A stretch of DNA of 64,000 nt from an uncultured Candidatus Saccharibacteria bacterium (GTDB taxonomy: Bacteria > Patescibacteriota > Minisyncoccia > Phycocordibacterales > PALSA-1337): contig CAZGUZ010000002.1 of NCBI GenBank assembly GCA_964529025.1, forward strand, positions 6,885-70,884. The letters are read 5' to 3'. Positions 20,457 through 57,784 of this stretch are shown here, piece after piece. The translations under genes and the position numbers were made by a program. Numbering within the stretch: position 1 is the stretch's first letter; every line of letters starts with the position of its first letter. Under the pieces are notes generated by a model that worked only from the letters and a program-made list of their open reading frames with translations, ran no database searches and was not told the origin of the DNA.

Positions 20457-23400
20457 TTATTTTTGTTCTGTAGTGCTGCCTGAAAAGTTTCCTGTTGATT
20501 TAATTTCGGTACCAGTGTTAATACGCAATATATACCAAGCTATAAGCCCAAGACCAAGTATTACAAATACAACAACAACGATTGTTAGAGCATGTGGATA
20601 CTGAACAGTAAAAGGAACCTTGGGTGGTACTGGCGCCATATACTCGGCATTAACTTTAACATCACCTAAATATGCTCGTACAACTTCTTGAGCCGAGATA
20701 AAACGTGCTAATTCTTGAGTGTCGTAGTTTGGAGCAAGTGCTCGTGGGTTTCCGTATACAAGTTCATAATTACCCGATACTGAGCCATCAAAAATCAAAG
20801 AACCGAGTGGTCCTTTTACACGCAATGTTTTACCAAAATCAAGTGGAGCACTATCGCCATTTGCAATAACTATTTTAATGTATCGAGCTACTACCGGAGA
20901 AAATTCAATAGTATTAATTGATCCTACAAATGTCTGGCTGCGGAGCGAATATAAACGGCCAACACCTGCCTGACTGTAGTCTTTTCCATCAACTGAAGTT
21001 AACACTGTTGCTTGGCGAGCAAAGTTACCTTCGCCCAAACTTACACCGATCTCAGAAACATTGTAGAGTCTACCAAGATCAGCAGTAACAACTGATGCTT
21101 TTGTCTTTGGATCAAGCGCCACAGTTTGTTCTACTGTATGAGTATATGTTCGAGGAATTACACTTTCTGCAGACGATTCGATTCTTACTCCATCAATTAT
21201 AAGTGCACCCTCAGTACCAGCAACAATCTCTATCTTAAGATAACGACTTGTCATCTTAGGAAGACTCACTGTTGTATATGCTTGTCGTACACCTCCAGAA
21301 ATATTTTCTTGGAAAGAATAAATATATCCTGCATCACTTACCAATCTCCACCCTGCACTATCTATACCCAGCTGAGCATCGGCAGCATATACCTTAACCT
21401 GTCGATTAAAATTATTATTGCGAACTTTGAGTGTTATACCCGAATAAACAGAATCTGTCCCGACATCAAGCAGAGCAAATGTATTTCCATCTCGAGAAGA
21501 TGTATTGAGAAGTTTTGCTTGTACTTCATCTGTTGCAAAAGTTGTTCGGTGCACAACTGCATACGAAACCTCTTCTATACCATTGCGTACAATACGAATT
21601 GATGAACCTTGTGGGTCTACACCAGTTACTGATTCAGGAATTACAACCTCAACAAAAGGTTGAGTGCTATTTGCTCCGTTATATTCAATATCTTGTGAAT
21701 ACTGCCACATTTGTGGCTCATATGCAGCCTGCGCAGCAGCTCCAAAGAGAGCTATACCGAGCACAAGAGCAGCTGTTGTTCCAATGAGGCGATCTTTGTA
21801 TTTTGCATATACGAATGATGCTATAAGAGCAAGTGCTCCAACACCAATTGTTGCCACTATTTTATAGATTGGACCGAGTGACCATACCCGAGCAATGACA
21901 AGAACCATGGTAAATACAAAGAGGACGAGGCCGAGTTTTCGTGGACCGGCAACTCGCTTTACAAAACCTACGAGCGTTAAGAATGCTGCATAAATTGCGT
22001 AGAAGATATAGATAATAGTATTTGCTGTATTACCAAGTTTCTCTGCAAGTTTATTGGCTTCTGCATAGGCCTCTTCTTGTACATTATCTGCACTTCTACC
22101 GCTATACATAAGTGCTGTTTGAGCTTGATTTGAAGCTCTATCATATGCAGCACTTGCCAAATATGAGTAGAACTTAGTTACCTGTGAAGTTACCGTAAGC
22201 AAGAAGAATACGTTTGCCACAACAAAGAATATGGTAATACCTCGCTTTTGTATTTCTTTTGTAATGCTTCCGCTGCGATAGTAAATGAAAGCAATAATAC
22301 CAGCAATGACAGTTGTGAGCATCATCGCAAAGAATCCTGTATTGAGGATTGGAACAAACGGTTTTGATGGATTAAACAATGTCCATTCATTAATGAGGAT
22401 AGAGCCGGCTCCAAGTGCAAATACAATTGCTCCCATAACCTGGAATCCACGATCTTGAATACGTGAAGCAAGATAGTACAAAACAAGAGATTCAATAACC
22501 CAAGCTACGCCGACCCAAACACCATCAAACTGCAATTGCACAGCAACAGTAAGGAATGTTGCCATAATTCCTGCCATAACAATTGATACATACACCTTTC
22601 CTTGAGTTACGGTGTGTGCAATATATGCTGCAATTCCAGCATGAAGAGCTCCGAGTACCGCACCAATTCCAAGGTAATCAGAATATTCTTCTACAAACAA
22701 GATGTACATAGTGACTGCCCCAAAGAAATAAGCGAGCGTTGCTAGAACAATACCTGTTTTATCATACTCACTTTGTGCCCGATTCATGAGTGCAATTCCC
22801 ATTCCTACAAACATTGTTGTCCAAAGGAGTGCAAATACAGCAACAATTGCCAACAGAGTATTACTGTACTCAGTTACATACCAAGAACTAAATGCAAGAG
22901 CAATGCCAATTGCGGGTAAATATGCCAAGTATGTCCAACCCCTTCTCAAAATAACTGCGGAAATTCCAATTGCCGCAATCGTAATGTATGCTGCCACACC
23001 AATGAAACTCGTAGTCTGAAGATCGAAAATAAGTGGAGCAAGGAAAGCGCCAATACTTGCAATGACAAGGAGTGATTGTGCTCGTAGAACCGTACTTACA
23101 ATACATACTACCGCTGTAATTACAATGAATCCCGCATAGGCGGCCGACATTGGAATAAGCTGATAAAAATCATAGGCTGCATACACTGAAAAATACAGTA
23201 TTGTTGCACCTCCACCCATAAGTACCGCTCCATATTCTTGATACTTTGCATACAAGTAATGACCTAGAGCAAATATACCCGCTCCACCAACTAAACCAAG
23301 CATGATTCTTCCTGCTTCGCCAATCCAATTATTATCAAAAGCATATTTCAAGAAGAATATAGCACCGAGCACAACTGCGCCAATACCGATTCTACCCAAA

Positions 23401-23762
23401 ATAACTCCAGCCGATTCTTCTTTATGAACTTCTACTTGTTGCGCCTGTGGTTGCGGTGCAGCAGTATTTGCATATGGAGCATAAGAAGCGTGTGGATTAT
23501 AACCACTTGCTGTTTTAGGAGCAATTGGAGGAATGAGTGGATCAGGCCTTACTGCACTTGGTGTTGGCTGTGCAGTATTTGACGAAGACTGAACAGTATT
23601 TGTCTGTGTATTTACCTGCACAGTTTGTTCCGGCATCTGCCGAGAAGTCTGATTTAAACGCTCAAAAGCGCGAACATCTTTTTCAAGAATAGTAATTCTG
23701 TGCGATTGTCGCATAAGAGCGATAATGAAAACTACACCTCCAATCAAAAAAATAAAATCCAT
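20457..23762 (-). CDS. 1101-aa polytopic membrane protein (>20 TM) with a ~400-aa extracytoplasmic C-terminal domain and a C-terminal TM anchor
   Basis: Highly hydrophobic repeated helices occupy residues ~120-700. A Q/P-rich linker lies near the N-terminus. It is possibly DUF2339-like, but the family assignment is uncertain. Confidence 0.55.
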   Translation of the reverse strand: MDFIFLIGGVVFIIALMRQSHRITILEKDVRAFERLNQTSRQMPEQTVQVNTQTNTVQSSSNTAQPTPSAVRPDPLIPPIAPKTASGYNPHASYAPYANTAAPQPQAQQVEVHKEESAGVILGRIGIGAVVLGAIFFLKYAFDNNWIGEAGRIMLGLVGGAGIFALGHYLYAKYQEYGAVLMGGGATILYFSVYAAYDFYQLIPMSAAYAGFIVITAVVCIVSTVLRAQSLLVIASIGAFLAPLIFDLQTTSFIGVAAYITIAAIGISAVILRRGWTYLAYLPAIGIALAFSSWYVTEYSNTLLAIVAVFALLWTTMFVGMGIALMNRAQSEYDKTGIVLATLAYFFGAVTMYILFVEEYSDYLGIGAVLGALHAGIAAYIAHTVTQGKVYVSIVMAGIMATFLTVAVQLQFDGVWVGVAWVIESLVLYYLASRIQDRGFQVMGAIVFALGAGSILINEWTLFNPSKPFVPILNTGFFAMMLTTVIAGIIAFIYYRSGSITKEIQKRGITIFFVVANVFFLLTVTSQVTKFYSYLASAAYDRASNQAQTALMYSGRSADNVQEEAYAEANKLAEKLGNTANTIIYIFYAIYAAFLTLVGFVKRVAGPRKLGLVLFVFTMVLVIARVWSLGPIYKIVATIGVGALALIASFVYAKYKDRLIGTTAALVLGIALFGAAAQAAYEPQMWQYSQDIEYNGANSTQPFVEVVIPESVTGVDPQGSSIRIVRNGIEEVSYAVVHRTTFATDEVQAKLLNTSSRDGNTFALLDVGTDSVYSGITLKVRNNNFNRQVKVYAADAQLGIDSAGWRLVSDAGYIYSFQENISGGVRQAYTTVSLPKMTSRYLKIEIVAGTEGALIIDGVRIESSAESVIPRTYTHTVEQTVALDPKTKASVVTADLGRLYNVSEIGVSLGEGNFARQATVLTSVDGKDYSQAGVGRLYSLRSQTFVGSINTIEFSPVVARYIKIVIANGDSAPLDFGKTLRVKGPLGSLIFDGSVSGNYELVYGNPRALAPNYDTQELARFISAQEVVRAYLGDVKVNAEYMAPVPPKVPFTVQYPHALTIVVVVFVILGLGLIAWYILRINTGTEIKSTGNFSGSTTEQK

Positions 23763-26596: not shown

Positions 26597-29500
26597 TTAT
26601 CGTGAATTCAATATCTTGCGAGTATTTACTCCGACATATCCTCGCTGATCCAAACCATTTTTCTTTTGGAGTTCAATAACTGCTGCTTTAGTTTTTTCTC
26701 CATAATATCCAGTTACAGGACCTGCATAAACACCGAGTTCAATGAGTCGCTTTTGAAGCTCTTCTACTTCAGAATTCTCCATGCCGAATTCCAAAAAGTT
26801 TTTAAACTCAAATCGAGCACTCTGCTGTGGAATTTGCGGAACCACTTGTGGCACAGTCTGGGACTCAATGTTTTGAGGTGCTGGTACTGAAACTGGGTTA
26901 GAATCTCCTGAAATAATAGTATTGAGCAATTCGCGAGTTAATGGACCAACTGTACCTACACTTGGTAAGCCGTATTGCTTTTGCAATTCCCGTACACCGG
27001 CCAGAGTTTTTATTCCAAAGAATCCTGTTGGTGGCACATCTATCATTCCCCTTTCAAAAAGAATTGCTTGAAGCTGTCGAACTTCGGTACCGATAGAACC
27101 AACACTAAGTTGTTGTGTGAATGTTCGTGGATTATTAGATGATATTCCCTGAGAAGAATTTTGCTGACTTGTATTTGGTAGCACAGTTACAGCTGGGGTC
27201 TGCACTGATGCTGGAGTTCTTCCTACATACGTTCTACTTGATCCGCCACCGCGACGCGAAGATCTCGCGGTTGGCGTGGCTGGCGCTTCTACGGCTGGTG
27301 CAATTTGTGTTGTAAATGTCTCAATTGAAGACGTAGCTTCATTCGCATATGCATCTAAGCTTAATACTCGATAGTAGTATGTTGTACTTGCAATAAGACT
27401 CGACAAAGTTACGCTATGTGATGTCACCAACGAAGAGCCAAGTGTCGACAAAGAACCTAGACTTAATGTTGTTCCGTATTCAACCTGCGAATCCGAAGCC
27501 TCATCAGTCGTCCAAGTAATGAGAGCAGCTGTCGAACTCGTACTTGTCGCATTAACACTACTTATAATTGGACTCGTAAGATCTGCCGTAAGGTTTAATA
27601 GTGTCGAGACGGTGTTGGCATTTCCTGCTAAATCTGTATATGTAGTTGTGCCTAGGACAAGATTCATTGCACCTTGTGCAACCGGTGCCACATTAAATGT
27701 GTACACACTTTGAGAAGTTGTAGCAAATGACCCCACAGTTCCGTTTGTCACTGAGATATCATGTATTCCAAAAGTATATATATCACTTACACCCGTAACA
27801 GTGACAGTTGTTCCCGAAGATCCAACGGTACTCTGCCCAGCAGTAAGAGCAGCAGTTGGAGCTGTAGTATCAACAGTAACTGTTGTTGCACTTGAAGTTG
27901 CACTATAATCTGATCCAACTTGTTGCACTGCCGAAATTGCATAACTACCATCAGATAATGCTGATGAAGTAATTGTCCAAGTACCACCAGATTCTGAAGC
28001 AGAGCCAATGAGCGTACTACCCCCTTGATACAAATAGACCGTTGCAGAGGTTGATGCTGTACCCGTAAATGTTGGAGTCGTATCATTTGTAACTCGGTCA
28101 GAATTTGAAACCCCGGAATCAGAGGCCGAAGAAAGTGTCGGTGCAGCAAGTGTAGCTACAATTGCTTGAGTAGATGTTCCAGCGAGCGTTGTAATTGTTG
28201 TTCCACTTGATGTTGCAGTATTACCTGATGCATCCACTGAGACCACTCGGACATAGTACAAAGTACTTGTTGCAAGATCACCCACGGTAATATCATGCGA
28301 CGTGACCAAAGAAGGATTAAGTGCGGAAAGTGTTCCATAGCTCAAAGTTGTACCGTACTCCACTCGAGATGTAGCAGCCTCATCAGTTGTCCATGTAACT
28401 CTAATATTTGTTGTTGCTGTACTTGTAGCAGAAAGACTTGAGACAACTGGCGGTGTCGTATCAGCAACCTCACCCGTACCCACTACTGCCGAGTTTGTTG
28501 TTCCTGAACCTGTAACTGTCTGCACCTTGTAGAAATATTGTTGGCCAGTCTGAACATCGAAAGTGTCAACAAAACTTTCAGTGGTTGAGCTTAAATATTC
28601 AGAAACTACATTCTGCGTAAATATATTATTTGTTGCGCGCACTAAATACACATCGGCAGAAGTTGGCTCATTATTGTCCCATGTAACTGTCACAGTATTA
28701 CCCACTCGATTCACCGCAACATTAGTTGCAGCATCTGGACCATCGGTTGTTGGGAATTCAGTATCAAGATCCCAACTTGATTTCCATGGAATAGTCATAA
28801 TGGTACCTGTACCCATAGTAATTGGTAGCCAAACATGACGAGAACCGTACAATGAACCATTGTTTACATCGGTATAATTAAATCTATCTCCCATATAGAT
28901 ATAACTTCCTGCTCGGCCTGGAATTTCAAGAATATGTGTTGTCTGTGATCTAAAAGCAAGTGTATAGTCTTCTTCTGCACTTGGAAGGAATGGGTTAACA
29001 CGAGTTGACCATGTGCCAAGTACACCAGTTGTCGATGTTGCATACGTGTTCATGTTTGGAGCCCAACCTGAAAGTCCCGAGGTCACCAAATAGTGAATAC
29101 CGTTTCTGATAAACATAGCTGGGGCTTCGCGACCATTGTGGTTAGCTGGGTTTAAGAATGTTTCTGTAGTACCAAGATAATCATCGGTGAGCAAAGAGAT
29201 AAAGAACTTTGTATTGATACCGTTTGAATAAAGCACATATGCTTTACCATCAGCATCCTTAAAGAGGTTCATGTCGTTGAGACCTTCTCCATTTGGATTG
29301 TATGTTGTAGAAAAAATGGTAAATGGACCCGTTGGATTATCTCCGTATGCAATAAAAGCTCGAGAGTTTGGATAACTAATCACATTGTGACCCCACATAA
29401 CATACTTACTTGTTGTGGCATTGTAAATCACGTGTGGTCGCTCAATAATATGCAATCGTCCTCCGTAAACAATTGGTTGTTCTTCGGTCCAGTTCAAAAG

Positions 29501-32500
29501 ATCGTTTGATGAATATACCGAAACGCCCACAGCTTCGATTTCTGGACTATCAGTATTCATAATTTGACCGTACCAATAGTACTTACCGCGTGTGTACAAA
29601 ATGTTTCCATCGTGTGACTCGATAAGGCGACTGTTCATGTCGTACCAATCACCCGCTGGGAAAAATCTTCGCTCAATAGAAATTCGAGCAGTCACTGAAG
29701 GTTCAGACACAAAGTAGTCCCCACCAACATTACTTACAGCAATAGCAATAACTTGTGTTGTTGTAGCGACTCTAAAGGGACCTGTATACAATTGCGTTGT
29801 ACCTTGTGGCATTCCACCACTAAACACCGGTGTTGTACCATCGGTTGTGTAGTACAAAGTTGCATCAGTTGTTCGACTCGATAGTCGTACACGAATTGGG
29901 TCACGATAATATCCTCCTCCTGGAGAAACTCGTGGTGCTACAGGAATAAACGGTGACGATGTTCCTGCAAGACCGATGATTTTAAATTCTGCAAGGTTTG
30001 CACTTGAATAGTCAGCGGCAACTAATCGTAGATAACGGTAAGCCTGGCCGCCACTATCAACAGGAACTTCTGTCACATGACGCTGTGGAAAGTATGGTGG
30101 TGTATATGGTGTTGTACTTGCAACCGTATGAATAACTGTCCAAGGACCAGTCGTTGAACTTACGTTAGATCCTTGAAGCTGAACTCCATATACTCGGGCT
30201 GTATATCCACGACGTGGAGCTAAGCCAATTGCTGTAGGAATAAATGCTGCTTTGGCGTCAACGCTGGCATAAGCACCAGAAACTGTTGCAGAGTCCCACC
30301 ATGTTTCAACATTGTTATCGTAGAGCTTTGCATAGGTGTTTCCACTGTTAAGATAACTTCCTGCGGTTCCGTTTTGATATGCGGGGTGAACATATAACTG
30401 AACCTCTCCATCAACATCAGCCAAAGGACATGCTGCTGTCGTAAATGAACGAGTTGTACCGTAGCGCGTACCGGCGACGTTTGTTGCATATGCACGATAG
30501 AAATATGTTGCTCCACATGCTAAATCACCTGTAACGGTCGTTGTTGCAAAGTCACCAACTCCAGACGTGCCTAAAATTGTTGATGTCGCGCCGAACGTTG
30601 TTGTGATACCGTATGCAATTCCTCGAGCTGTCGTACTTGCTCCACCATCAGATGTTACTGATCCTGCAAGTAATGCTCTAAAAGCATATACCGTTGTTGA
30701 GGCTAAAGTTGTTACTGTTGGTGCAACCGAGTTAAGTACAGTTACGTTAACTGCAGTCGATGTTGCTCTATTACCTGCAATATCTTGAACTGTGGCCGAA
30801 AGTGTGTGTGCGCCATCTGTTGTTGTGAGAGAGTTCCATGTAATTGAATATGGCGATGTTGTACCCGATGAACCAATAGGAGAACCATCGAGATTAAACT
30901 GAACTGACGTTACCCGAACATTGTCAGTTGATGTTGCTGTAAGTGTAACTGAACTGCCGACAAGTGTTGCCCCAGCAGCTGGAGCTGTCATAGTAACAGC
31001 TGGTGCAATTACATCCGCAAGAACTGTTATTGATGTTGTAGCCGAACTTAACGGGTCTGTAATAATTAAAGTTCCCGTTGCTGAACCAGCATACAATACA
31101 ATTGATGCTGATAAAGAGTCAGCAACACTTTGTGACTGAATTGCCGCACCGTTTCCACCAGTTACCGTAAATGTTGGTGTTCCAGGAGTTCCTGCTGTCC
31201 AACCCGTAGCATTACCTGTCAAAGAAATGCTGGATGTGGCACCTTGCATTATTGTTGTTGTGCTTGGCGTAATCGTAATAAGCGAGTTATTAACATTAAC
31301 CGTAATTGTAGTTGAGGCCACATTACTTGATGCATCTGTCGCAATGGCTTTAATGGTGTGTGTACCGTCTGAGTAACCTGTAGTATTCCACGTAACACTA
31401 TGGGGCGACGTTCCACCAGCACTGCCAACTTGCACCCCATCAACCTGAAGAACAATTGAGTTGAGCAAAACATCATCAGTTGATGAAGCTGTAATTGTTA
31501 CACTACTACCAAGAACTGTAGCATCCTGAAGTGGTGCTGTAATTTCTACCTGAGGAGCAGTTGTATCAGCAGAAAGTGAAAAATCGGCAGTTGCGGTATT
31601 TGATGTCGAAGAACCTGCCGCTGTTATTGTTCGAATTCGATAAAAATAACTTGTATCATTGGTGATATCTGGATCATTCAAAGATAATGTTGTTGAGCCA
31701 AGCAACAATGCTCGCAAATTTTGTGTAAAGTTTATATTTGTAGCTCGCTCAAGGTAGTTATCAAAGGCAGTACCGTTGGTGCTCCATGAAAGATCTACCG
31801 AGAGGCCATTTTTAACACCCACCAAACTTGAAACAGCCGTTGGTGGGGTCGCTGTAACGAAGAATGAATCGAGGTTCCAACTTGAATACCACGAAATAGA
31901 CATAGTATTTACTGTTGGAAACGTAATTGGCAGCCATACAAACCTTGAGTTATACAGTGAACCTGTTGCATATGCTGAGTTATCAAAGCGATCACCTATA
32001 TATACAAAACCATCTGTTCTACCTTCAACTTTAAGTACTTCACTTGGCTGTGAAGCAAAGCCGGTCGAATTATCAAAAAGACTACTACTCTGAAATGGAT
32101 TCACTGGATACGAGTACGTACCGAGTGGGGACGAAGACGTCGAGTACTTTACTAGTGTATGTGCAAAAGTTGCACTGGTACTTGCTGTCATCAAATAATA
32201 CACATCACCGTACCTAAACATTACCGGCGTTGCTCTGTTTGCAAGCGCGGCCACGTTAACAAAACTACCTTGAGGCGACAAATAGTCGCTGCTCAATTGA
32301 GCAACAACGATACGTGTTGTGTCCGAAGAAGCATGAGCAACGTAACCGGTTCCGTTATTATCTACAAACAAGTCGAGATCGTTATTTCCAAAGCCACTAA
32401 TATCAAGGCGTGTATTATAAACCCTGAAAGGACCGTACGGTTTTGACGATGTGGCAACCATAGCTCTACCCGCAGAAGCATTTCGAGCCCACATAACATA

Positions 32501-33589
32501 GGTACTACTTGCAGCATTGTAAATCACACGAGGGCGAGTATATCTAATACTTGAAGAAGCTATCATAAAGCCTTCATACTTCCAGTTTAAAAGATCGTTT
32601 GATGAATATGCGACGATTCCACCAAGTTCGACTTCTGGCGTACTATTGTTATACGACTCTCCATACCAATAGTATTTACCGTCCAAATAACTGATACCTC
32701 CCGTGTGTGCATCAATAAGCTGGCCACCATTTACATTCCTCCACTCATTTCCCGGGGTAAAGTTGGGTGCAATATAAAAATATGCAGGATCAGAAATTTC
32801 TGAAGAATTTGTGCCACCAAGCACCGCTATTGCTTTAATAGTTGTAGTTGCCGTACTCGTAATTAAGAATGGGTATGTATACGCCTGCGTGGTTCCCTGT
32901 GGTACTCCTGCTGTAACAACAGGGTTTGTTCCGTCAGTTGTATAGTACAAAGAAGCATCCGTTGTAAGACTTGCTAAGGTTACCAATGTTGATGTTGCAT
33001 AACGACCACCATGAGGAGTAATCGTTGGTGTTACAGGCGTGTACGGAGTACTACTTGAAGCAATACCAATCATGCGCAACTCTGCCACCGAACCATAAAA
33101 GTTATTCTGAGTTAATACTCGATAGTAGCGGTAATACTGGTTTCCCGTATCAATAGAAATTTCATTGAGCTGCTTTTGCGGATAATACGGTGGCATACTT
33201 GGTACCGTATAAATTGTTGTCCATGGTCCGGTTGATGAACTTACATTGGCACCTTGAACTATTGCCCCTACAAGTCGCGGAACATAGCCCAAACGCGGTG
33301 CAATTCTAATTTTTGTTACTTTTGCAGCCGACAAAAGATCAAGGCCTACGTATCCTTGCGCAACCGAAGAGTCCCAGTGAGTTGTAAGGTCACTATCAAA
33401 TACCTTAGCAATCGTGTTGCCGTTATTACCAAAACTTCCCGCCGTACCAATCTGATACTGTGAGGCAATACTAAATTGAACTTCGCCCGTAGCGGCATGG
33501 ACCAGAGTCGGAGTTGTAGCAAAACAAAGAGCACTGTAGAGTAGCGCAACAAAAAATACTGGGGTCAGCTTGTTCACCAGACGATACAT
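26597..33589 (-). CDS. Giant (~2330-aa) secreted multidomain protein: 2x [F5/8-type C (discoidin) + GH43-like 5-bladed beta-propeller], FN3/Ig-like repeats, 2 C-terminal peptidoglycan-binding (PG_binding_1) domains
   Basis: Signal peptide at MYRLVNKLTPVFFVALLY. Discoidin-like segments read NTIAKVFDSDLTTHWDS and NTYAKLYDNNVETWWDS. Propeller signatures read DGKYYWYGE..SSNDLLNWK and RGKYYWYGQ..SSNDLLNWT. The C-terminus has two LQ..L...G.....G.FG..T..AV..LQ PG-binding repeats. Confidence 0.8.
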   Translation of the reverse strand: MYRLVNKLTPVFFVALLYSALCFATTPTLVHAATGEVQFSIASQYQIGTAGSFGNNGNTIAKVFDSDLTTHWDSSVAQGYVGLDLLSAAKVTKIRIAPRLGYVPRLVGAIVQGANVSSSTGPWTTIYTVPSMPPYYPQKQLNEISIDTGNQYYRYYRVLTQNNFYGSVAELRMIGIASSSTPYTPVTPTITPHGGRYATSTLVTLASLTTDASLYYTTDGTNPVVTAGVPQGTTQAYTYPFLITSTATTTIKAIAVLGGTNSSEISDPAYFYIAPNFTPGNEWRNVNGGQLIDAHTGGISYLDGKYYWYGESYNNSTPEVELGGIVAYSSNDLLNWKYEGFMIASSSIRYTRPRVIYNAASSTYVMWARNASAGRAMVATSSKPYGPFRVYNTRLDISGFGNNDLDLFVDNNGTGYVAHASSDTTRIVVAQLSSDYLSPQGSFVNVAALANRATPVMFRYGDVYYLMTASTSATFAHTLVKYSTSSSPLGTYSYPVNPFQSSSLFDNSTGFASQPSEVLKVEGRTDGFVYIGDRFDNSAYATGSLYNSRFVWLPITFPTVNTMSISWYSSWNLDSFFVTATPPTAVSSLVGVKNGLSVDLSWSTNGTAFDNYLERATNINFTQNLRALLLGSTTLSLNDPDITNDTSYFYRIRTITAAGSSTSNTATADFSLSADTTAPQVEITAPLQDATVLGSSVTITASSTDDVLLNSIVLQVDGVQVGSAGGTSPHSVTWNTTGYSDGTHTIKAIATDASSNVASTTITVNVNNSLITITPSTTTIMQGATSSISLTGNATGWTAGTPGTPTFTVTGGNGAAIQSQSVADSLSASIVLYAGSATGTLIITDPLSSATTSITVLADVIAPAVTMTAPAAGATLVGSSVTLTATSTDNVRVTSVQFNLDGSPIGSSGTTSPYSITWNSLTTTDGAHTLSATVQDIAGNRATSTAVNVTVLNSVAPTVTTLASTTVYAFRALLAGSVTSDGGASTTARGIAYGITTTFGATSTILGTSGVGDFATTTVTGDLACGATYFYRAYATNVAGTRYGTTRSFTTAACPLADVDGEVQLYVHPAYQNGTAGSYLNSGNTYAKLYDNNVETWWDSATVSGAYASVDAKAAFIPTAIGLAPRRGYTARVYGVQLQGSNVSSTTGPWTVIHTVASTTPYTPPYFPQRHVTEVPVDSGGQAYRYLRLVAADYSSANLAEFKIIGLAGTSSPFIPVAPRVSPGGGYYRDPIRVRLSSRTTDATLYYTTDGTTPVFSGGMPQGTTQLYTGPFRVATTTQVIAIAVSNVGGDYFVSEPSVTARISIERRFFPAGDWYDMNSRLIESHDGNILYTRGKYYWYGQIMNTDSPEIEAVGVSVYSSNDLLNWTEEQPIVYGGRLHIIERPHVIYNATTSKYVMWGHNVISYPNSRAFIAYGDNPTGPFTIFSTTYNPNGEGLNDMNLFKDADGKAYVLYSNGINTKFFISLLTDDYLGTTETFLNPANHNGREAPAMFIRNGIHYLVTSGLSGWAPNMNTYATSTTGVLGTWSTRVNPFLPSAEEDYTLAFRSQTTHILEIPGRAGSYIYMGDRFNYTDVNNGSLYGSRHVWLPITMGTGTIMTIPWKSSWDLDTEFPTTDGPDAATNVAVNRVGNTVTVTWDNNEPTSADVYLVRATNNIFTQNVVSEYLSSTTESFVDTFDVQTGQQYFYKVQTVTGSGTTNSAVVGTGEVADTTPPVVSSLSATSTATTNIRVTWTTDEAATSRVEYGTTLSYGTLSALNPSLVTSHDITVGDLATSTLYYVRVVSVDASGNTATSSGTTITTLAGTSTQAIVATLAAPTLSSASDSGVSNSDRVTNDTTPTFTGTASTSATVYLYQGGSTLIGSASESGGTWTITSSALSDGSYAISAVQQVGSDYSATSSATTVTVDTTAPTAALTAGQSTVGSSGTTVTVTGVSDIYTFGIHDISVTNGTVGSFATTSQSVYTFNVAPVAQGAMNLVLGTTTYTDLAGNANTVSTLLNLTADLTSPIISSVNATSTSSTAALITWTTDEASDSQVEYGTTLSLGSLSTLGSSLVTSHSVTLSSLIASTTYYYRVLSLDAYANEATSSIETFTTQIAPAVEAPATPTARSSRRGGGSSRTYVGRTPASVQTPAVTVLPNTSQQNSSQGISSNNPRTFTQQLSVGSIGTEVRQLQAILFERGMIDVPPTGFFGIKTLAGVRELQKQYGLPSVGTVGPLTRELLNTIISGDSNPVSVPAPQNIESQTVPQVVPQIPQQSARFEFKNFLEFGMENSEVEELQKRLIELGVYAGPVTGYYGEKTKAAVIELQKKNGLDQRGYVGVNTRKILNSR

Positions 33590-33625
33590 ACATACAGTAT
33601 AACACCGGCAAAAGCTCAACGGGGC

Positions 33626-34174
33626 TTATTTATTCACATTTTCTGAGCGTGAACACCAGAGTGTTAGCCCAATACCAACTAAAACAATAAGGAGTGCAGC
33701 AAAGTAGGTAATACCAGCAATTTGATCGGTGTACTCAAGGATTCCAAACATAGAAAAAAGAGTGTTCCAGTCATGTTCAACACTATCTCCTCCAAGCAAT
33801 GGCAGCACCATTCTTTGTGCATCACCCATGTATACTGAGACCTCAACCAAACTCTGCCCCATCCACATAATTATAATTCCCGAAGAATAAAATTCGCGCT
33901 TCAGAAAAAAGTATCCTGCAATAACGAGCGGAACAATAACTTGCATTGCTGATCCTGCAATAAAGTGAATAAACTTTCCAAAGAAAGCTGCTAGTGTATG
34001 CCCTGCTTCATGGAAAATAAGATTAACGGTACTTATAATATGAAATTCTTGTGGTGTTTGTATGGCGTATACAATGTATACAATAGCAATAAGTGCGCCG
34101 ATAAGCTTTCCGTAATGGATTCGTGCTGAATACTCTTGTTCTATTGCTCTATATATAAATGAGACGGCATTCAT
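33626..34174 (-). CDS. Small polytopic membrane protein with an HExxH motif (putative membrane metalloprotease-like)
   Basis: Contains IFHEAGHTLAAFFG within hydrophobic helices. The start is assigned to the internal Met (MNAVSF), because the longer GTG-started ORF would place a terminator hairpin at 34222-34243 inside coding sequence. Confidence 0.45.
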   Translation of the reverse strand: MNAVSFIYRAIEQEYSARIHYGKLIGALIAIVYIVYAIQTPQEFHIISTVNLIFHEAGHTLAAFFGKFIHFIAGSAMQVIVPLVIAGYFFLKREFYSSGIIIMWMGQSLVEVSVYMGDAQRMVLPLLGGDSVEHDWNTLFSMFGILEYTDQIAGITYFAALLIVLVGIGLTLWCSRSENVNK

Positions 34175-34207
34175 ATACTTATTATACACGAGGTCGTACC
34201 CCTCGTG

Positions 34208-34243
34208 GTCAGCAAACAAAAAGGCGCCCCCGAAAGGGCGCCT
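34208..34243 (-). terminator. Rho-independent terminator (minus strand) ending the GC-rich unit
   Basis: The minus strand reads aggcgccctttcgggggcgcct followed by ttttgtttg, a 9-bp GC stem with a U-run. Confidence 0.6.
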
Positions 34244-34510
34244 GTGCGATCGCATAATAGCGATCACTGGCCATTTGCTGGATCCTGCGGTGGATCTCCA
34301 GCTTGATCCGTGTCAGAAGGCTGTTCTCTGCAGCCACTTGGACTCCAAGTAACAGTGCCGTCACCGGCACCATTTGCTTCCCCTGAGCGACTCACCCCGA
34401 CAATCACGGGATTACCCCAGGGTGTAACTGGTTGAACAGGAAAATTTTCCATACTGCACTTAGAGTACACCCGCAAATTAAAAGTAGCAACTGTGCACAT
34501 TTAGGTATGA
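34244..34510 (-). ncRNA. Candidate structured RNA / leader (unclassified), or alternatively a 78-aa Pro/Gly/Cys-rich ORF (34264..34500)
   Basis: A ~270-nt segment with locally high GC is bounded by a near-consensus promoter and a strong terminator on the minus strand. It contains several GC hairpins, including GUGCCG-GUGA-CGGCAC with a GNRA loop. No SD precedes the ORF start, which lies only ~10 nt from the predicted TSS. Confidence 0.3.
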
Positions 34511-40301: not shown

Positions 40302-42752
40302 TTATTCGCTTATCCCTTGTAATTGCTGAGCTTTTTTATATGATAGCGGACCAAAGGTTCCAGTTCCTGTTGTGTGGCCAAGTGGGGCAAGTATGTCTGC
40401 ACTATAAGCCTCTTGATAACGCTTAACAGCTAAGTATGTTCGCACTGAATATAAATCAGTTTCATTTCCCAAAGAGCCTGGACCAGAGCGAGCAAGGTTA
40501 AATCCTAAACAATTCAAATACTTTTGTAGTCTTTGTACATCCTCACCTTTCATTCCTGAACGAAGTGTGCGATTAAGTGCGCCAAGCTTACATGAGGCAC
40601 TTACATTATGCTGAACATTTTGCTCAACACTAGGTTGCGCCACACTTTGTGCTACTTTTTGCACACTAGCCACTTGTGGCCATTCTTGCTGCAAGCGATC
40701 TGCTTCTTGTGACAAACCGAGGCGATTAAGATTTTGTATACGCTCGCGAACCGACGTCACTGAACGACTTCCTGTTTGTGCAGCTGACACTGGCGCTGTG
40801 CCGTACAAAGCAAAAACTGAAAAGTGAGGCGCTGTGCAACTTACTTGATTAAGACCAGTATTTACTGAACATGCATCAAGTTGCGACCAAGTTCCCGATC
40901 GATAGTGGTAGAGCGTAATTGTATTTTCATCGAGACCCTGAACATCGGCATCTGTATACGTATACGTAATTGTCACAGGAGTATTGAACGATTCAAGAAT
41001 GGTTGTGCCGTCGATAAGAGCGGTGACTTCAAATACAACAAGAGCGGCGCGCTCCTTATCAGCAGTAGCGTCACCAATTCCCGACAAAACATCTGCAGCT
41101 GGCAAAGCTTTGATCTGAATAACGATAGAAGATGACGATGCTGTAACAAACTCTGGTACCTCTACAGTAAACGTTCTGCCATCATCAACAAACTCTATTG
41201 TTGATGTAGCATCGGTACTTACCGTCGTCGTAGTTGCTGCCGTTGGAGTCTGACTTGCAGGACAACCAAGAGTTGTAATTGCCGTTGTCGATGTTGCGGT
41301 ATTGCCCGTTGCGTCTCTTGATACAAGATCGAGTGTGTATGCAATACACGGAACTAATGAAGAAAGAGTAACTTCATGTTCTGTCACACGCGTAGAAGTA
41401 TTAATTTCTGGTGTTGAAGAGCTCACCCCAGGACCAACTTGAAACCAAACCTTAGAAGAAGCGAGCTCATTTGTATTCCATGTCACAATTGCCGAAGTTG
41501 TAGCAATTTCAGTTGCCACATTTGTTATTACTGGAGCTGTTGTATCTGATGTTGTTAAACGCCATTCTGAGCTTTCGGTAATTCCAGCAAAGTTATTACT
41601 CGAAGCATCACGCAAAGCGCCGTTCGGAATAATAACGTAGAGTTGAGTACCCTCAGGTAAGTTTACTGTTGGATTAATGGTAATTTGTGTTGTACCTCCA
41701 CCTGTTACTGCTCCACTTGTTACATCGATAGTTTCTACAGTACTGTCGTCTGATACTTTCTTAATAAGAATATTACCCGAGTTTGGACTTACTGCTTTAC
41801 TCAAAGTAATAACCAAATTTGTTGAAGAACTTACGAGGGTTGCGCCATTCACCGGCGACAGTGTTGCCACAGCAGGAACATCAGCAGTTACCACAGAAAT
41901 TGTTGTAGCAACTACGGTAGGCAGATTCCCCGGTGTACCAAATTCTGCAACGTATCCAGAAAGATTATTACTTGTACAATTTAGGTCGTTCCATTTAGTG
42001 GTAGAAATATAAAATTGAATACAATCTTCACCAGGAGTACCATTCAGCCAGTCATTAGGCTCACCCGAGCTCCAGTTTGCATATTGTCCAGGAGCAGCCG
42101 AACCACCAGAGGCACCTGTCCAGAACAATGTACCCGATTCAGGTCCTGTAACCCAACGCCACTGCCCTTCGGTTCCTTCATCACTACCACCAACCCAACC
42201 ATCACCCTGCAAACGTGCAGCCACGAAATCATTCTCTGCCTGAGAAGTAATTGTTGCCAAGTAGCCACTTACACCGTATGCAGACTGTGTTGCAGCTTGA
42301 GTCCGTGCATTAAGAGCATTAATACTACCCGTTATGAATTTATACAAATGACCATTGTCAGGAAAAAATACTTCCCCAGGTTCAACCAAAGAGACTTCAA
42401 GTGTGTCAGTGCCGGTGCTTGCGCGCGAATATTTAAGTGTAGCTAAAGCGTTATTAATGTTTGCTACAGTTCCATTAAAACTCACTGTTGTTCCAGAACT
42501 TGGACCGCTAAAAGTAAGGCCCGTAGTAGAAGTCATCGATAGAGTTCCGTATGTTGAACGCAAACGAACCGGCGTTGTTGAAGCAGAAGGTCCAACAATT
42601 TGAAAACCAGTAATTGATGTAGCCACACTTGGTGTCGTTGTTGCATTGTCACCACTTTGAAGTGTAAGGGCCGCTTGTGCATATGAAGCATACCCCAGGA
42701 GGAGCATACTATAAAATACTGTACTCAGAAGAAAGCCGAGTCCTTTTTTCAT
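40302..42752 (-). CDS. Secreted surface protein: C-type lectin domain (EPN and WND motifs) + Ig-like repeats + C-terminal peptidoglycan-binding domain
   Basis: Signal peptide at the N-terminus. The CTLD reads GYLATITSQAENDF...WVGGSDEGTEGQWRWV...YANWSSGEPNDWL...EDCIQF...KWNDLNC. The C-terminus carries a GEDVQRLQKYLNCLGF PG_binding_1-like repeat. Confidence 0.75.
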   Translation of the reverse strand: MKKGLGFLLSTVFYSMLLLGYASYAQAALTLQSGDNATTTPSVATSITGFQIVGPSASTTPVRLRSTYGTLSMTSTTGLTFSGPSSGTTVSFNGTVANINNALATLKYSRASTGTDTLEVSLVEPGEVFFPDNGHLYKFITGSINALNARTQAATQSAYGVSGYLATITSQAENDFVAARLQGDGWVGGSDEGTEGQWRWVTGPESGTLFWTGASGGSAAPGQYANWSSGEPNDWLNGTPGEDCIQFYISTTKWNDLNCTSNNLSGYVAEFGTPGNLPTVVATTISVVTADVPAVATLSPVNGATLVSSSTNLVITLSKAVSPNSGNILIKKVSDDSTVETIDVTSGAVTGGGTTQITINPTVNLPEGTQLYVIIPNGALRDASSNNFAGITESSEWRLTTSDTTAPVITNVATEIATTSAIVTWNTNELASSKVWFQVGPGVSSSTPEINTSTRVTEHEVTLSSLVPCIAYTLDLVSRDATGNTATSTTAITTLGCPASQTPTAATTTTVSTDATSTIEFVDDGRTFTVEVPEFVTASSSSIVIQIKALPAADVLSGIGDATADKERAALVVFEVTALIDGTTILESFNTPVTITYTYTDADVQGLDENTITLYHYRSGTWSQLDACSVNTGLNQVSCTAPHFSVFALYGTAPVSAAQTGSRSVTSVRERIQNLNRLGLSQEADRLQQEWPQVASVQKVAQSVAQPSVEQNVQHNVSASCKLGALNRTLRSGMKGEDVQRLQKYLNCLGFNLARSGPGSLGNETDLYSVRTYLAVKRYQEAYSADILAPLGHTTGTGTFGPLSYKKAQQLQGISE

Positions 42753-46398: not shown

Positions 46399-48534
46399 TT
46401 ATCTAACTTCGAGTGACAATGTTCCTATTGTATATGTTCCGTGAACGCCTGTACAATGCACACTAATATCATACGTACCTGGTTCAACACTCGAAGTGGT
46501 TGATACTATTCCAGTATCTTGATCAATCGTAATATTTGAATAGCTATCTGATGATCCACCTGAAATAGTAGCGATTGAACAGTTACTGTAGTAACCAATG
46601 ACACCGGTACTTGTTTCGCCAGCTTGAATTGTTTGTGTTGAATCTGCATATGGCGAAGCATCAAAACCGCTCAAGACATAAGGAGTATTTACTGCAATTG
46701 ATCGCCAAATTGTCCCGATACCCGTCAATACAATATCGGCATGCGACGACGTCCAACCAGAAACCCCATTAGCTGCTTCAGAGTAGCCTCCTGAAATCGA
46801 AGCTGAAAAACCTCCGCTTCCTGTAAAGCCTTGATCGGATAAACCTGCTCCAGCTGTATAGACATTACTTGCCGACACTCCAGTGAACGACGTTCCGAAT
46901 ATACCACCTGAACTTGACCCTCCCATGTCTCCGGTTGTGTATGAATTAGAAACTGTGCTGAGCGAAGCATTTGAACCAACAATACCACCACCGCCCGAAG
47001 ATATTGCACCCGTACTATAAGAATCGCTCACCGCTGCAGAGTTTGAACCCAAGCCAACAATTCCTCCACCATTTATACCGATAGCACCTGTCGAATAACA
47101 TCTTGAAACACTTACCATTTCGCTATTTGCACCAACAATTCCGCCTCCACCGGTACTTATATCACCGCTACTACTACAATATTCAAACTCATTACCGTTA
47201 GAGCCCTTTCCAAAGTAGCGCTGCCCTAGCCATCCAGCATTTGTTGCAAGGGTACTACTAACTTCATTCACAGCAATATTTGATACCGTAACATTATTGT
47301 ATCCATCAGCAACCGCTGTTCCGTTTTGAATAAAACCAGGGTAATTACTTACAGTATGTACCGTAATAATTGTTGGTTGTGTAGAGTTGCCGTTTTCACC
47401 TCTAATTTCAATATCATCAGAACCGATAATGATGTAAGAGTTTGCTGAACTTATCGTAAAATCACCCACAAGATGTACAACAAGAGTTCCTGAACCACCA
47501 TTTTGTATTGTTGGGAACAACGTTTGTGTCCAACTATTTCCATCGCCGCTAAACTCAAGTTCACTACCGTTTTGACGAAGATATAAAGTATCAACACCCA
47601 CGAGCGTTGCCCCAACACCTGCAGCTATAACTGCACTTTCAAAACCAACCGTACACGAACCAGTAATTGTCCCTGTTGTATATGTTGAATGCACCCATGT
47701 TCCCGTTGGGCATGTACCACTAACAGTACCTAAACCGTACCCTAATCCAGACTCTGCGGTGAATGACGCTGTTGAACCATGATTAACAGTTCGCGCTCCA
47801 CTCGGTGAGATTCCAATACCACTCAATATTACGGTGTACGAATTAATTGAAGCATTAAAGATTACTGAACATGAAGCATTAATTGCTCCTGTGGTATATA
47901 TCGAACCGTTCCATGTTCCAGCTGGACAGGTTCCACCAACACTTATGGTATATCCCGTTGGAGCGGTAACTGTATATGATTCAGTTGCACCAAAAGAAGT
48001 AATACGCGGTGATAGTGAACTTACTGTTACATTACTACCCGCACTCGACAATACAGCATATGAATTTGAAGAGCCTCGGCCGCCCCTTGATTTACGCACC
48101 TTTGCTGTTGTTGTAGCTTCATCTTCTATAACTTCTTGAACGGGAACAATTTGCTGCTCTGCAATAAGTGAATTGTTAACAAAAGTACGCGTTGCCGAAA
48201 AGAAATTCCCTGTAGGGTATATTAAACCGAGCGGTGCTAATATTTGTTGCGAGAACTGCTGTTGGAGTCGCATTACAGCTGCCCGAGTTTTTGCTCCAAA
48301 AAATTGTGTCTCTTGCCCGAGTGAACCTTCACCTGATTCGGCAACATTAAAACCGTGAGTATTAAGGTATTTTTGAAGGCGCTCTACATCAATACCATTC
48401 GATCCTGGTTTAAGATCTTGCGTAAAAAGCTCTGGAGCTTGAGTCTGGGCTTGCGCTGCGTATGGGCTCAATTGTAAACAAAATACACCGAGCGCAATCA
48501 AACAAGTGTTCCCTAACGTACGCAAAATATTCAT
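46399..48534 (-). CDS. Secreted protein with N-terminal peptidoglycan-binding domain and Gly/Ser-rich beta-helix-like repeats
   Basis: A signal peptide is followed by GIDVERLQKYLNTHGFNV...AVMRLQQQF (PG_binding_1). Repeated GGGGIVG.NS / GGGIVGLGSN / SGGIFGTSF units follow. Confidence 0.65.
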   Translation of the reverse strand: MNILRTLGNTCLIALGVFCLQLSPYAAQAQTQAPELFTQDLKPGSNGIDVERLQKYLNTHGFNVAESGEGSLGQETQFFGAKTRAAVMRLQQQFSQQILAPLGLIYPTGNFFSATRTFVNNSLIAEQQIVPVQEVIEDEATTTAKVRKSRGGRGSSNSYAVLSSAGSNVTVSSLSPRITSFGATESYTVTAPTGYTISVGGTCPAGTWNGSIYTTGAINASCSVIFNASINSYTVILSGIGISPSGARTVNHGSTASFTAESGLGYGLGTVSGTCPTGTWVHSTYTTGTITGSCTVGFESAVIAAGVGATLVGVDTLYLRQNGSELEFSGDGNSWTQTLFPTIQNGGSGTLVVHLVGDFTISSANSYIIIGSDDIEIRGENGNSTQPTIITVHTVSNYPGFIQNGTAVADGYNNVTVSNIAVNEVSSTLATNAGWLGQRYFGKGSNGNEFEYCSSSGDISTGGGGIVGANSEMVSVSRCYSTGAIGINGGGIVGLGSNSAAVSDSYSTGAISSGGGGIVGSNASLSTVSNSYTTGDMGGSSSGGIFGTSFTGVSASNVYTAGAGLSDQGFTGSGGFSASISGGYSEAANGVSGWTSSHADIVLTGIGTIWRSIAVNTPYVLSGFDASPYADSTQTIQAGETSTGVIGYYSNCSIATISGGSSDSYSNITIDQDTGIVSTTSSVEPGTYDISVHCTGVHGTYTIGTLSLEVR

Positions 48535-50459: not shown

Positions 50460-50716
50460 ATAGTTAGAAGAAAAAAACCAATAATTTCTATTGGGTTTTT
50501 TCTTCGCTCTTACTGCATATACATTACGAGATGCGTTCCGAAGCAAAAATTCCCAATAGTAAAACTGCCTGGGGTGTGAATCCCTTGAGTTCGTTGAGAA
50601 TGATGTTTGCTCGACGTTTCATACATATACTATACCACAGGATATATGCTAGGTCGAGCGCTATTTAATCCACACAATATCATAGCGGTACATACGCCCA
50701 AGGACAGATTGGTCTT

Positions 50717-51223
50717 TTATACTTTTCGCTGTATAAGGCGCTCAAGGATACTCGATTCATCAGCATCATCCCTACCAAATCGATGTCGTTGTTCTTTCAT
50801 GATTTCAATGAGTTGCTGTGGTGGCATAAAACGTACCTCACTCAAGGCTTCGATATCATCCTTAGCGCGTAGACTTTCATCAATTGATATAAGATTACAC
50901 AAAAAATATATTGTAGTCTTTTCTATAGAAACATTACCTTTAGGAAAATTGATAACAATAGGGCCAAGGTAATCAACAATTTCTCCGGTTGCACCAAACT
51001 CTTCTCGTAAGCCTCGATAAAGAGTTTCTTCTATTGACTCACCAAGTTCTGGAGTCTCACGCATAAGAATATACAGATCCTTAAATTCCCCCAATGAAGG
51101 ATGTTCAAACTTTTTAAAGTAGTGTACTGCGACTTCGCCCTGAGCATTTTGCATAACTGCACCTATAGAAAGATGATATGGGTGATTCTCTGTGCCTTTG
51201 AAGTAGTTAGTTTTGGGTTTCAT
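50717..51223 (-). CDS. NUDIX hydrolase
   Basis: Nudix box GESIEETLYRGLREEFGATG (GX5EX7REUXEEXGU). Confidence 0.75.
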   Translation of the reverse strand: MKPKTNYFKGTENHPYHLSIGAVMQNAQGEVAVHYFKKFEHPSLGEFKDLYILMRETPELGESIEETLYRGLREEFGATGEIVDYLGPIVINFPKGNVSIEKTTIYFLCNLISIDESLRAKDDIEALSEVRFMPPQQLIEIMKEQRHRFGRDDADESSILERLIQRKV

Positions 51224-51352
51224 ATTTCTATCATATCTCTTTTTGAGACTTTGTTCAAAATTTGTTGGGTGACGAGCTGGCTACTAGCGTTTACAAAAGA
51301 CTAATTATATAGCTCACTCAAGAATATTGCACTAGTTTTACCGTTGTAATCT

Positions 51353-52102: not shown

Positions 52103-52166
52103 GGAGGCAATAGTATCAGAGAATCCCGAACTTGCTAAGTTAAAAGGGTGATCTAATCCACTCTAC

Positions 52167-52670: not shown

Positions 52671-52725
52671 TTTTGTTAAGTTAGTTGATTAGCTGCCCCA
52701 CACAAAACTGAGACTAATTTAAAAA

Positions 52726-53493: not shown

Positions 53494-53656
53494 AGAGTAA
53501 CGTTATCATATTTGAAGAAAAATGACATAGTAAAACCCAGACCGAATTGTCTGGGTTGAAGTTATGTGCCCACACGCCAATACCCTAATCCAGACAAAAA
53601 AACGCGTCGGAGGAATCCGACGCGCTGTTCGTGGGTTGGTGATGAGGATGGGCATT

Positions 53657-57779: not shown

Positions 57780-57784
57780 ACTAT

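Follow-up and report, generated by a model that had tools for sequence, protein, structure and literature searches.

Exo-beta-1,3-galactanases of glycoside hydrolase (GH) family 43, subfamily 24 (GH43_24), are known from Bacteroides thetaiotaomicron (BT3683, 6EUG/6EUH/6EUI; BT0265, 6EUF), Clostridium thermocellum (Ct1,3Gal43A, 3VSF), and Phanerochaete chrysosporium (Pc1,3Gal43A, 7BYS). This subfamily is without the canonical GH43 catalytic base (PMC7939473). In Pc1,3Gal43A, Glu102, which reads O4 of galactose, Glu208, the general acid, and Gln263, acting as base in the imidic acid form, were each shown by mutagenesis to be essential, with the conserved -1 subsite comprising Glu57, Glu102, Arg103, Tyr126, Asp158, Glu208, Trp229, and Gln263 (PMC7939473). 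At the surface of Bifidobacterium longum, arabinogalactan protein is degraded by Bl1,3Gal (BLLJ_1840, GH43_24) and BlArafE, which combines GH43_22 and GH43_34 modules with LamG and immunoglobulin (Ig)-like domains and a C-terminal transmembrane segment (PMC8939339). A further point of reference is the carbohydrate-binding module (CBM) CtCBM62 (2YFZ), which binds D-galactopyranose and L-arabinopyranose (PMC5063996). The present analysis addressed a single large gene within a 64-kb stretch of DNA (hereafter, the window) from contig CAZGUZ010000002.1 of an uncultured Candidatus Saccharibacteria bacterium. The gene product carries two propellers of the GH43 type, each preceded by a CBM62-like domain, and is likely a wall-associated protein in which one GH43_24-type module is live and the other dead.

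Both propellers belong to GH43 (clan GH-F) and are subfamily-24-like. The Glyco_hydro_43 profile (PF04616; cut-off 32.2 bits) matched the N-terminal propeller (N-module) at 53.6 bits and the C-terminal propeller (C-module) at 51.5 bits. When each was compared with the PDB as a single sequence, the C-module retrieved 6euf (9e-49), 6eug (5e-48), 3vsf (9e-40), and 7bys (3e-34), and the N-module retrieved 6eug (1e-36), 6euf (1e-30), and 3vsf (4e-29). In profile searches of the PDB, GH43_24 entries were returned at 1e-64 (6eug), 1e-45 (7bys), and on to 6e-38, with the next GH43 entry from outside subfamily 24 appearing at 2e-17. Structure modelling, proposed as a check in the initial annotation, yielded all-beta, five-bladed propellers of some 20 strands, the AlphaFold2 (AF2) models being of moderate confidence (C-module: predicted local distance difference test [pLDDT] 78.9, predicted template modelling score [pTM] 0.82; N-module: pLDDT 76.2, pTM 0.80) and built from alignments of 12 sequences. 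Foldseek searches of the PDB with these models returned GH43 propellers at all of the top 50 positions, ranks 1-9 being GH43_24. Template modelling (TM) scores were 0.71-0.78 to BT3683, BT0265, Ct1,3Gal43A, and Pc1,3Gal43A (C-module to BT3683/BT0265: 0.75-0.78; N-module to BT3683: 0.76), as opposed to 0.55-0.67 for other GH43 enzymes. Assignment to the subfamily thus rests on nearest neighbors by sequence, by profile, and by structure. Arabinan, xylan, and levan, initially put forward as substrates, were not borne out by these comparisons, as the nearest characterized enzymes are GH43_24 exo-beta-1,3-galactanases and the CBM62-like partner is of a galactose-specific type.

Active-site residues were numbered as in Pc1,3Gal43A using a HMMER alignment to 7BYS (chain index + 21), with the offset being checked on Glu208/Trp229, Glu102/Arg103, Arg157/Asp158, and Gln263. 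In the C-module, which is 31-36% identical to the characterized galactanases, the -1 subsite is intact except for Glu57, replaced by Gln1352. Present are Glu1393 (Glu102), Arg1394 (Arg103), Tyr1416 (Tyr126), Asp1449 (Asp158), Asn1469 (Asn180), Glu1498 (the acid Glu208), Gly1518-Trp1519 (Gly228-Trp229), and Gln1559 (Gln263), all shared with those enzymes. By contrast, the N-module presents Thr361 in place of Glu102, Ala463 in place of Glu208, and Thr-Phe in place of Gly228-Trp229, and has lost the Tyr126 loop, while retaining equivalents of Glu57, Arg103, Asp158, and Gln263. As such, the general-acid Glu and the pKa-modulating Asp are both found in the C-module (Glu1498 and Asp1449), whereas only the Asp is found in the N-module.

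A word-indexed search of 5.8 billion proteins identified 14 proteins with the double cassette. Glu102, Arg103, Asp158, Glu208, Trp229, and Gln263 are present in each of the 14 C-modules, whereas Glu208 is absent from every one of the 14 N-modules, where Ala, Asp, Asn, Ser, or Val is found instead. Most N-modules also lack Glu102, none contains Tyr126, and eight are without Gln263. Because the acid Glu is missing throughout and Glu102 is missing from most, the N-module is a pseudo-enzyme by the criteria of the subfamily. At the same time, the invariance of Glu102, Glu208, and Gln263 in the C-modules, set against their free loss from the N-modules, indicates that catalysis has been selected in the C-module. 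The initial assignment of two glycosidase modules accordingly holds for the C-module, with its complete catalytic set; the N-module, in which the acid Glu and Glu102 are absent, falls into the binding-only class that the initial annotation had reserved for propellers without catalytic residues.

Ratios of non-synonymous to synonymous substitution (dN/dS) were calculated against an 84%-identical ortholog in a related metagenome-assembled genome (MAG). These were 0.024 for the N-module, 0.034 for the C-module, 0.005 and 0.021 for the first (A) and second (B) CBM62-like domains, 0.22 for the fast-evolving linker, and 0.34 for the signal peptide, all values being rough, given that dS, at 0.7-1.4, is near saturation. 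Purifying selection is seen on all sugar-directed modules, and on the N-module it is no weaker than on the C-module. Degeneration of the N-module was considered and rejected on account of its dN/dS value and its conservation across the 14 homologues. In a neighbor-joining tree, N-type and C-type modules formed sister clades, jointly monophyletic relative to the other GH43_24-like modules sampled. As the internal topologies of the two clades are congruent, a single duplication in the ancestor of the family, followed by co-divergence, is indicated. Lacking the acid Glu yet strongly constrained, the N-module is probably a lectin-like pseudo-enzyme. Inactive GH folds are known to serve as lectins, with the GH18 chi-lectins offering an example. 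As in those proteins, selection has maintained the GH fold of the N-module although the catalytic acid is gone, presumably to serve carbohydrate binding. The N-module differs from them in fold and family and in sharing its chain with a live paralogue, and any binding by the dead module is itself inferred.

The domain preceding each propeller had been described as discoidin. A profile of 16 family copies of this domain matched CtCBM62 structures (2yb7/2yfu/2yfz/2yg0) at E 3.8e-31 over positions 13-148 of 157, and residues 709-845 of 5g56 at E 5.6e-30, with ordinary CBM32/F5-8C structures appearing at 1e-4 or worse. In the query itself, F5_F8_type_C (PF00754) was detected at E 5e-4 to 9e-4 (19.8-20.5 bits), below the gathering score of 28.2, while 13-14 of the 16 family copies matched PF00754/PF22633 (best 4e-9), 13 of them at E < 0.01. 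These Pfam matches support kinship at the level of the superfamily only. Together with the CtCBM62 match, they show the domain to be real yet better called CBM62-like. Its best solved homologue, matched over about 135 residues, is CtCBM62 of the C. thermocellum arabinoxylanase CtXyl5A (2YB7, 2YFZ, 5G56). In that enzyme, the module follows a GH5_34 xylanase and is itself followed by a dockerin, whereas in the present protein it lies before a GH43_24-like propeller, and does so twice.

The gene is a single uninterrupted open reading frame (ORF) of 2340 codons at window positions 26597..33619 (-), in agreement with the initial annotation, and opens at TTG. The reading frame has its first ATG at codon 11 (window position 33589), where gene callers place the start, reducing the product to 2330 residues. 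The coding sequence was taken to begin at this ATG because the identical 2330-residue public protein P0001 (NCBI and Logan assemblies) starts there. A scan for promoters and terminators gave results no better than those obtained with shuffled sequences. The protein, of about 240 kDa, is probably exported via a Sec-type signal, considering that residues 11-42 comprise a basic n-region, a 16-residue hydrophobic core, and the sequence VHA immediately before ATGEVQ; the A-x-A/ATGEVQFS junction is kept in every complete homologue. At the other end of the protein, PG_binding_1 (PF01471) was matched in two C-terminal stretches (93.1 bits combined, with a threshold of 23), the second covering positions 2-57 of the 57-position profile, so that both peptidoglycan-binding repeats noted at the outset are confirmed. 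No sortase/LPXTG signal, S-layer-homology domain, or C-terminal transmembrane anchor is present in the sequence. As two further large proteins encoded in the window also carry PG_binding_1, this domain appears to be the usual wall anchor of the lineage. The signal peptide, the CBM62-like and GH43 domains, and the PG_binding_1 pair uphold the earlier description of a secreted, probably wall-associated, multimodular protein that binds or degrades glycans.

Set beside the described systems, the protein shares with Ct1,3Gal43A and Pc1,3Gal43A the pairing of a catalytic module with a galactan- or galactose-directed CBM (CBM13 and CBM35, respectively). It departs from the GH43_24 galactanases in that the CBM is N-terminal and CBM62-like, in the CHB_HEX_C domain found between CBM and propeller, in the presence of a second, dead cassette, and in having Gln, Asn, and Asp at the positions of Glu57, Arg157, and a conserved Gly. 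Anchoring differs as well, relying here on PG_binding_1, whereas the C. thermocellum enzyme carries a dockerin, the B. thetaiotaomicron enzymes are lipoproteins or periplasmic, and the P. chrysosporium enzyme is freely secreted. As with Bl1,3Gal and BlArafE, the host is monoderm and the protein is a large, surface-displayed, multidomain GH43 protein with a signal peptide; as with BlArafE, two GH43 modules and Ig-like spacers occur in one chain. The Bifidobacterium enzymes trim type II arabinogalactan extracellularly, and by analogy the same role may be proposed here. However, those enzymes are held by a C-terminal transmembrane anchor, with both GH43 modules active and drawn from different subfamilies, whereas here the modules are paralogues of the same subfamily, one of them dead, with two PG_binding_1 domains, a host from the candidate phyla radiation (CPR), and no adjacent utilization genes. 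What is already known, then, are GH43_24, CBM62, Ig and fibronectin type III (FN3) spacers, PG_binding_1, and surface-anchored proteins with multiple GH43 modules in Bifidobacterium. New are the pairing of enzyme and pseudo-enzyme paralogues, the CBM62-like/CHB_HEX_C/GH43_24 cassette, the PG_binding_1 anchoring, the active-site triad considered below, and the CPR host. Literature searches combining Saccharibacteria with GH43 or arabinogalactan yielded no description of the family and no GH43 enzymes of Saccharibacteria.

The model favored here, in which we place moderate confidence, is that of a surface protein that binds galactose-rich glycans and bears an exo-acting C-module cleaving beta-galactosyl units. 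The PG_binding_1 pair would dock the C-terminus non-covalently on the peptidoglycan of the cell itself, while some 900 residues of Ig/FN3 domains would form a stalk from which the cassettes reach away from the cell. Acting as lectins, both CBM62-like domains and the dead propeller would capture non-reducing-end galactose or galactan chains, while the live propeller would work from the non-reducing end, taking off beta-galactose or short galactosyl units of side chains. Its likeliest substrate would be a beta-1,3-galactan backbone as in type II arabinogalactan, either environmental, from plants or algae, or on a host cell, although the chance that beta-1,3-galactan is the true substrate is put at about even. 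The sugar released could feed a cell of little biosynthetic capacity.

Several points weigh against this model. To the shallow alignments behind the AF2 models and the near-saturated dS values can be added that GH43_24 enzymes of Akkermansia muciniphila were inactive on the defined substrates tested, meaning that membership in the family is no guarantee of the textbook activity. One complete homologue, P0005, has no PG_binding_1 and ends instead in a basic, hydrophobic tail, such that wall tethering is not universal. When 40 ORFs of the window were compared with Pfam, no gene of the Leloir pathway or galactose catabolism, no sugar ABC transporter, no other carbohydrate-active enzyme, and no neighbor resembling a polysaccharide utilization locus was found, and the only transporter of note in the 64 kb is a major facilitator superfamily transporter 20 kb away. 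The gene is not part of a utilization locus. Finally, three active-site differences set the C-module apart from all characterized GH43_24 enzymes, so that specificity for linkage or aglycone could differ.

These differences are Gln in place of Glu57 (13 of 14 C-modules), Asn in place of Arg157 (14 of 14), and Asp in place of Gly in the A-H-G-G motif (10 of 14, with the remaining four presenting Gly, Ala, or Ser), corresponding to Gln1352, Asn1448, and Asp1337 of the query. Among 94 modules from other genomes, Glu57 is kept in 83 and Arg157 in 78, and the triad states are confined to the present family. Indeed, the triad is absent from some 75 other GH43_24-like modules of other phyla, while in a wider sample Asp was found at the Gly position in 12 of 165 modules, a few of them outside the family. 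This distribution speaks for an alternative in which the live module is not a beta-1,3-galactanase and the triad would instead mark a sub-clade specific for another linkage or sugar, perhaps one returned to an inverting mechanism with an Asp base. In Pc1,3Gal43A, moreover, Glu57 and Arg157 contact O3 of Gal-1 (via water) and Gal+1 (PMC7939473). Still, the remainder of the -1 subsite is unchanged, including Glu102, which reads the axial O4, and the Trp platform, the partner CBM is of the galactose type, and four C-modules do without the Asp. This alternative is compatible with the architecture of the favored model and is held to be possible, if unlikely.

Whether Asp1337 occupies the position of the canonical GH43 base is a lead suggested by sequence comparison, not a finding. 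Asp1337 lies 10 residues ahead of the YY of the first beta-hairpin. The catalytic Asp15 of XynB3-type GH43 enzymes likewise lies 10 residues before YY, and in two canonical GH43 ORFs (loci L049 and L042) a D-P-x motif is found 10 residues before the aromatic pair of the hairpin (D-F-Y). A tblastn comparison with XynB3 placed its Ser17 opposite residue 15 of the module, and in the AF2 model of the C-module the first strand begins three residues after Asp1337. The alignment of the first 20 or so residues between subfamilies is, however, not robust, with HMMER local alignments starting only at position 38-40. Global alignment with hhalign of the C-module profile and four canonical GH43 sequences instead paired the invariant Asp of W-x-D with the DP motif, at low confidence; this pairing was rejected because all GH43_24 enzymes contain the W-x-D Asp and are nonetheless described as base-less. 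A bolder proposal, which we consider improbable, is that GH43_24 of this clade re-acquired a base carboxylate in Asp1337, with Glu57-to-Gln and Arg157-to-Asn as compensating changes, that the sister propeller became a dedicated lectin, and that a CPR epibiont both holds and feeds from the galactan-bearing surface of a partner. If true, the pair would amount to a test, set up by nature, of the Gln-imidic-acid base mechanism that is debated for subfamily 24, and would exemplify an enzyme-to-lectin transition fixed within one surface protein.

A second alternative is that the protein is mainly an adhesin, that is, a lectin-like tether of an episymbiont to a galactose polysaccharide of the wall or capsule of its host, or to algal or plant particles. 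In this case, the live propeller would perform local remodelling only and PG_binding_1 might bind host peptidoglycan. Only one of the four sugar-directed modules is predicted to be catalytic, and the other three are the most conserved (dN/dS 0.005-0.024); the long Ig/FN3 stalk is like those of bacterial adhesins, sugar-uptake and catabolic genes are not found nearby, and another PG_binding_1 protein of the window includes a lectin domain (Lectin_C with Big_5). Cultured Saccharibacteria are, moreover, epibionts or parasites, with host resistance mapping to envelope biosynthesis, including the arabinan of arabinogalactan (PMC11880426). Yet pure adhesion would have no need of the catalytic set, which is strictly kept in all 14 C-modules, and a family detected in about 6 of 185,579 species genomes, and forming about three clusters at 50% identity, is too rare to be a general attachment device of Saccharibacteria. 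The arabinogalactan of mycolata is based on galactofuranose. By contrast, the conserved -1 residues of the C-module read O4 of galactopyranose (PMC7939473). Adhesion as the main function is thus deemed rather unlikely. That both propellers are non-catalytic parts of a binding-only scaffold is very improbable, since Glu102, Glu208, and Gln263 are invariant in the 14 C-modules while the N-modules lost them, even though Glu57 and Arg157 are replaced by Gln and Asn in an otherwise intact C-module and some bona fide GH43_24 proteins are without detectable activity on defined substrates.

The favored model, a galactan-directed surface protein with one live propeller, bears on the carbon acquisition and surface recognition of small-genome CPR bacteria such as Saccharibacteria, both poorly understood. 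At 7 kb, the gene presumably takes up roughly 0.7% of a genome that we estimate at some 1 Mb, an outlay suggesting that galactose-rich glycans are an important resource or landmark for the lineage. The live-plus-dead propeller pair would also offer a clean system in which to follow the change from glycosidase to lectin, and the triad supplies naturally occurring variants with which to probe the catalytic mechanism of GH43_24.

The distribution of the family was considered next. When GTDB species, each represented by one genome, were scanned with a degenerate pattern, about 6 of 185,579 species genomes contained the family, while an exhaustive profile search returned 801 GH43_24-like proteins at E <= 1e-30, among which the family comprises about three clusters at 50% identity together with fragments. 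The closest loci were found in two Candidatus Saccharibacteria MAGs, with C-module identities of 96% and 59%, followed by four uncultured-bacterium or freshwater-type bins at 49-60% and then, after a gap, by Clostridia, Paenibacillus, Glycomyces, and Planctomycetes at 33-41%. A contig of the closest Candidatus Saccharibacteria MAG is collinear with window positions 23902-39142 at 82-85% nucleotide identity. The window thus derives from a near relative of that organism, in support of the reduced-genome organism assumed at the outset. Tandem GH43_24 modules as such are not unique to the family, given that proteins of other lineages contain two or three modules, all appearing catalytically intact; the distinctive feature is the conserved live-plus-dead pair.

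Three of the homologues warrant separate mention. The ortholog P0002 (2427 residues, 93% identical) contains about 97 extra residues in the FN3 stalk that follows the C-terminal cassette, after residue 1708 of P0001 (L003 11202-11466, corresponding to window position ~28450), such that the number of spacer repeats varies between close relatives. P0005 is encoded on the 381-kb contig JACCDG012073149.1 (L002, GCA_013558375.1), among ftsZ, ftsA, lepA, and tsaD. Contig numbering in that assembly exceeds two million, and a Saccharibacteria-like genome may thus have gone unnoticed within a very large assembly of metagenomic or eukaryotic origin. Lastly, a 6.4-kb contig bearing the family (L007, CAIMCT010000120.1) was assigned to a MAG labelled Desulfobacteraceae; judging from a G+C content of 0.425 and from its kinship with the Saccharibacterial family, it looks mis-binned.

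The positions of the domains are presented in Table 1.

Table 1. Features of the large surface protein gene and their window coordinates.
Feature	Window position	Strand	Basis or remark
Coding sequence	26597..33589	-	2330 aa, ATG to stop; most likely translation start
Sec-type signal peptide, MYRLVNKLTPVFFVALLYSALCFATTPTLVHA, followed by ATGEVQ	33494..33589	-	Read from sequence
CBM62-like (galactose-binding-like/discoidin superfamily) domain A, aa 45-200	33020..33487	-	
CHB_HEX_C_1/Fn3_assoc Ig-like domain A, aa ~205-285	32765..33007	-	Pfam PF13290, PF13287
GH43_24-like five-bladed propeller, N-module, aa 290-590, predicted non-catalytic	31850..32752	-	
Spacer, aa 600-1066: FN3-like, Big_7, Ig-like, Big_7, FN3-like	30422..31822	-	
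CBM62-like domain B, aa 1071-1231	29927..30409	-	
CHB_HEX_C_1/Fn3_assoc Ig-like domain B, aa 1233-1310	29690..29923	-	Pfam
GH43_24-like propeller, C-module, aa 1325-1622, predicted catalytic	28754..29647	-	
Stalk, aa 1639-2104: FN3-like, fn3, Big_13, Big_12, FN3-like/Pur_ac_phosph_N	27308..28705	-	Pfam
Low-complexity Pro/Ser/Gln/Arg linker, aa 2105-2166	27122..27307	-	Sequence
PG_binding_1 domain 1, aa 2167-2234	26918..27121	-	PF01471 and internal repeat
PG_binding_1 domain 2, aa 2282-2337	26609..26776	-	PF01471; NCBIfam SleB N-terminal region

The spacers had been predicted to be of the FN3/Ig type, and Pfam matches to Big_7, fn3, Big_13, Big_12, and the FN3-like Pur_ac_phosph_N confirmed this. 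Two stretches each were matched by PF13290 (74.6 bits), PF13287 (69.9 bits), and Big_7 (86.5 bits). Within the spacer between the cassettes, weak matches to fn3 and Ig_J_second were also obtained, while one Ig-like and one FN3-like segment of that spacer were without a Pfam match. Scanning the whole protein with NCBIfam gave partial matches to the peptidoglycan-binding part of SleB-type models only, and no equivalog.

Comparison of the whole protein with itself by blastp showed only the diagonal, with repeats being revealed by tiling. In this manner, residues 45-691 were found to repeat as residues 1071-1726 at 39-46% identity (about 43%), with tile E-values of 1e-40 to 1e-54. Further repeats relate residues 675-790 to 859-972, 2167-2234 to 2272-2339, and, within the stalk at 56-60% identity, 1719-1819 to 2012-2112. 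Of the two signatures initially reported to occur twice, SSNDLLNW does so (residues 339 and 1370), whereas DGKYYWYGE occurs once (residue 313) and only its core, GKYYWYG, is shared (residues 314 and 1345). The duplication also claimed at the DNA level is present, albeit faintly, as five collinear patches of 49-106 nucleotides, 71-82% identical and at a constant offset of about 3093 nucleotides. With so few short patches left, the cassette duplication is real but old.

Turning to the surroundings of the gene, a LexA-like S24 peptidase, NDH-2, and a 1101-residue DUF2339 membrane protein are encoded downstream, and a small HExxH membrane protein, an HI0933-like flavoprotein, and an ABC-F ATPase upstream. 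In relatives, copies of the gene sit among unrelated housekeeping genes. The adjoining upstream ORF (33626..34267, -) encodes a multi-pass membrane protein of about 209 residues with the motif HEAGH (HExxH) and no Pfam match, which may be a membrane metalloprotease; as its stop lies 36 nucleotides before the ATG of the large gene, the two are probably co-transcribed. The 1101-residue protein (20457..23762, -), 3 kb away, has a DUF2339 multi-pass membrane domain, DUF3999, and a match above threshold to the F5/8 type C profile, and is predicted to be a second glycan-binding envelope protein. The two other PG_binding_1 proteins of the window are one of 816 residues (40302..42752, -), with a C-type lectin domain (Lectin_C), Big_5, and a C-terminal PG_binding_1, and one of 711 residues (46399..48534, -), with an N-terminal PG_binding_1. 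Their domain content suggests that the genome encodes a repertoire of wall-tethered, lectin-like exoproteins.

Elsewhere in the window, two large ORFs, encoding 1048 (10124..13270, -) and 604 (61921..63735, +) residues, had no Pfam match at E <= 1e-5. Positions 50001..60000 have a G+C content of 0.35-0.39, as compared to 0.40-0.44 elsewhere, and may represent an acquired region. Several of its ORFs lack a Pfam match, while two others, lying side by side, encode zinc-ribbon proteins, one of which includes a trypsin-like domain (56676..58870).

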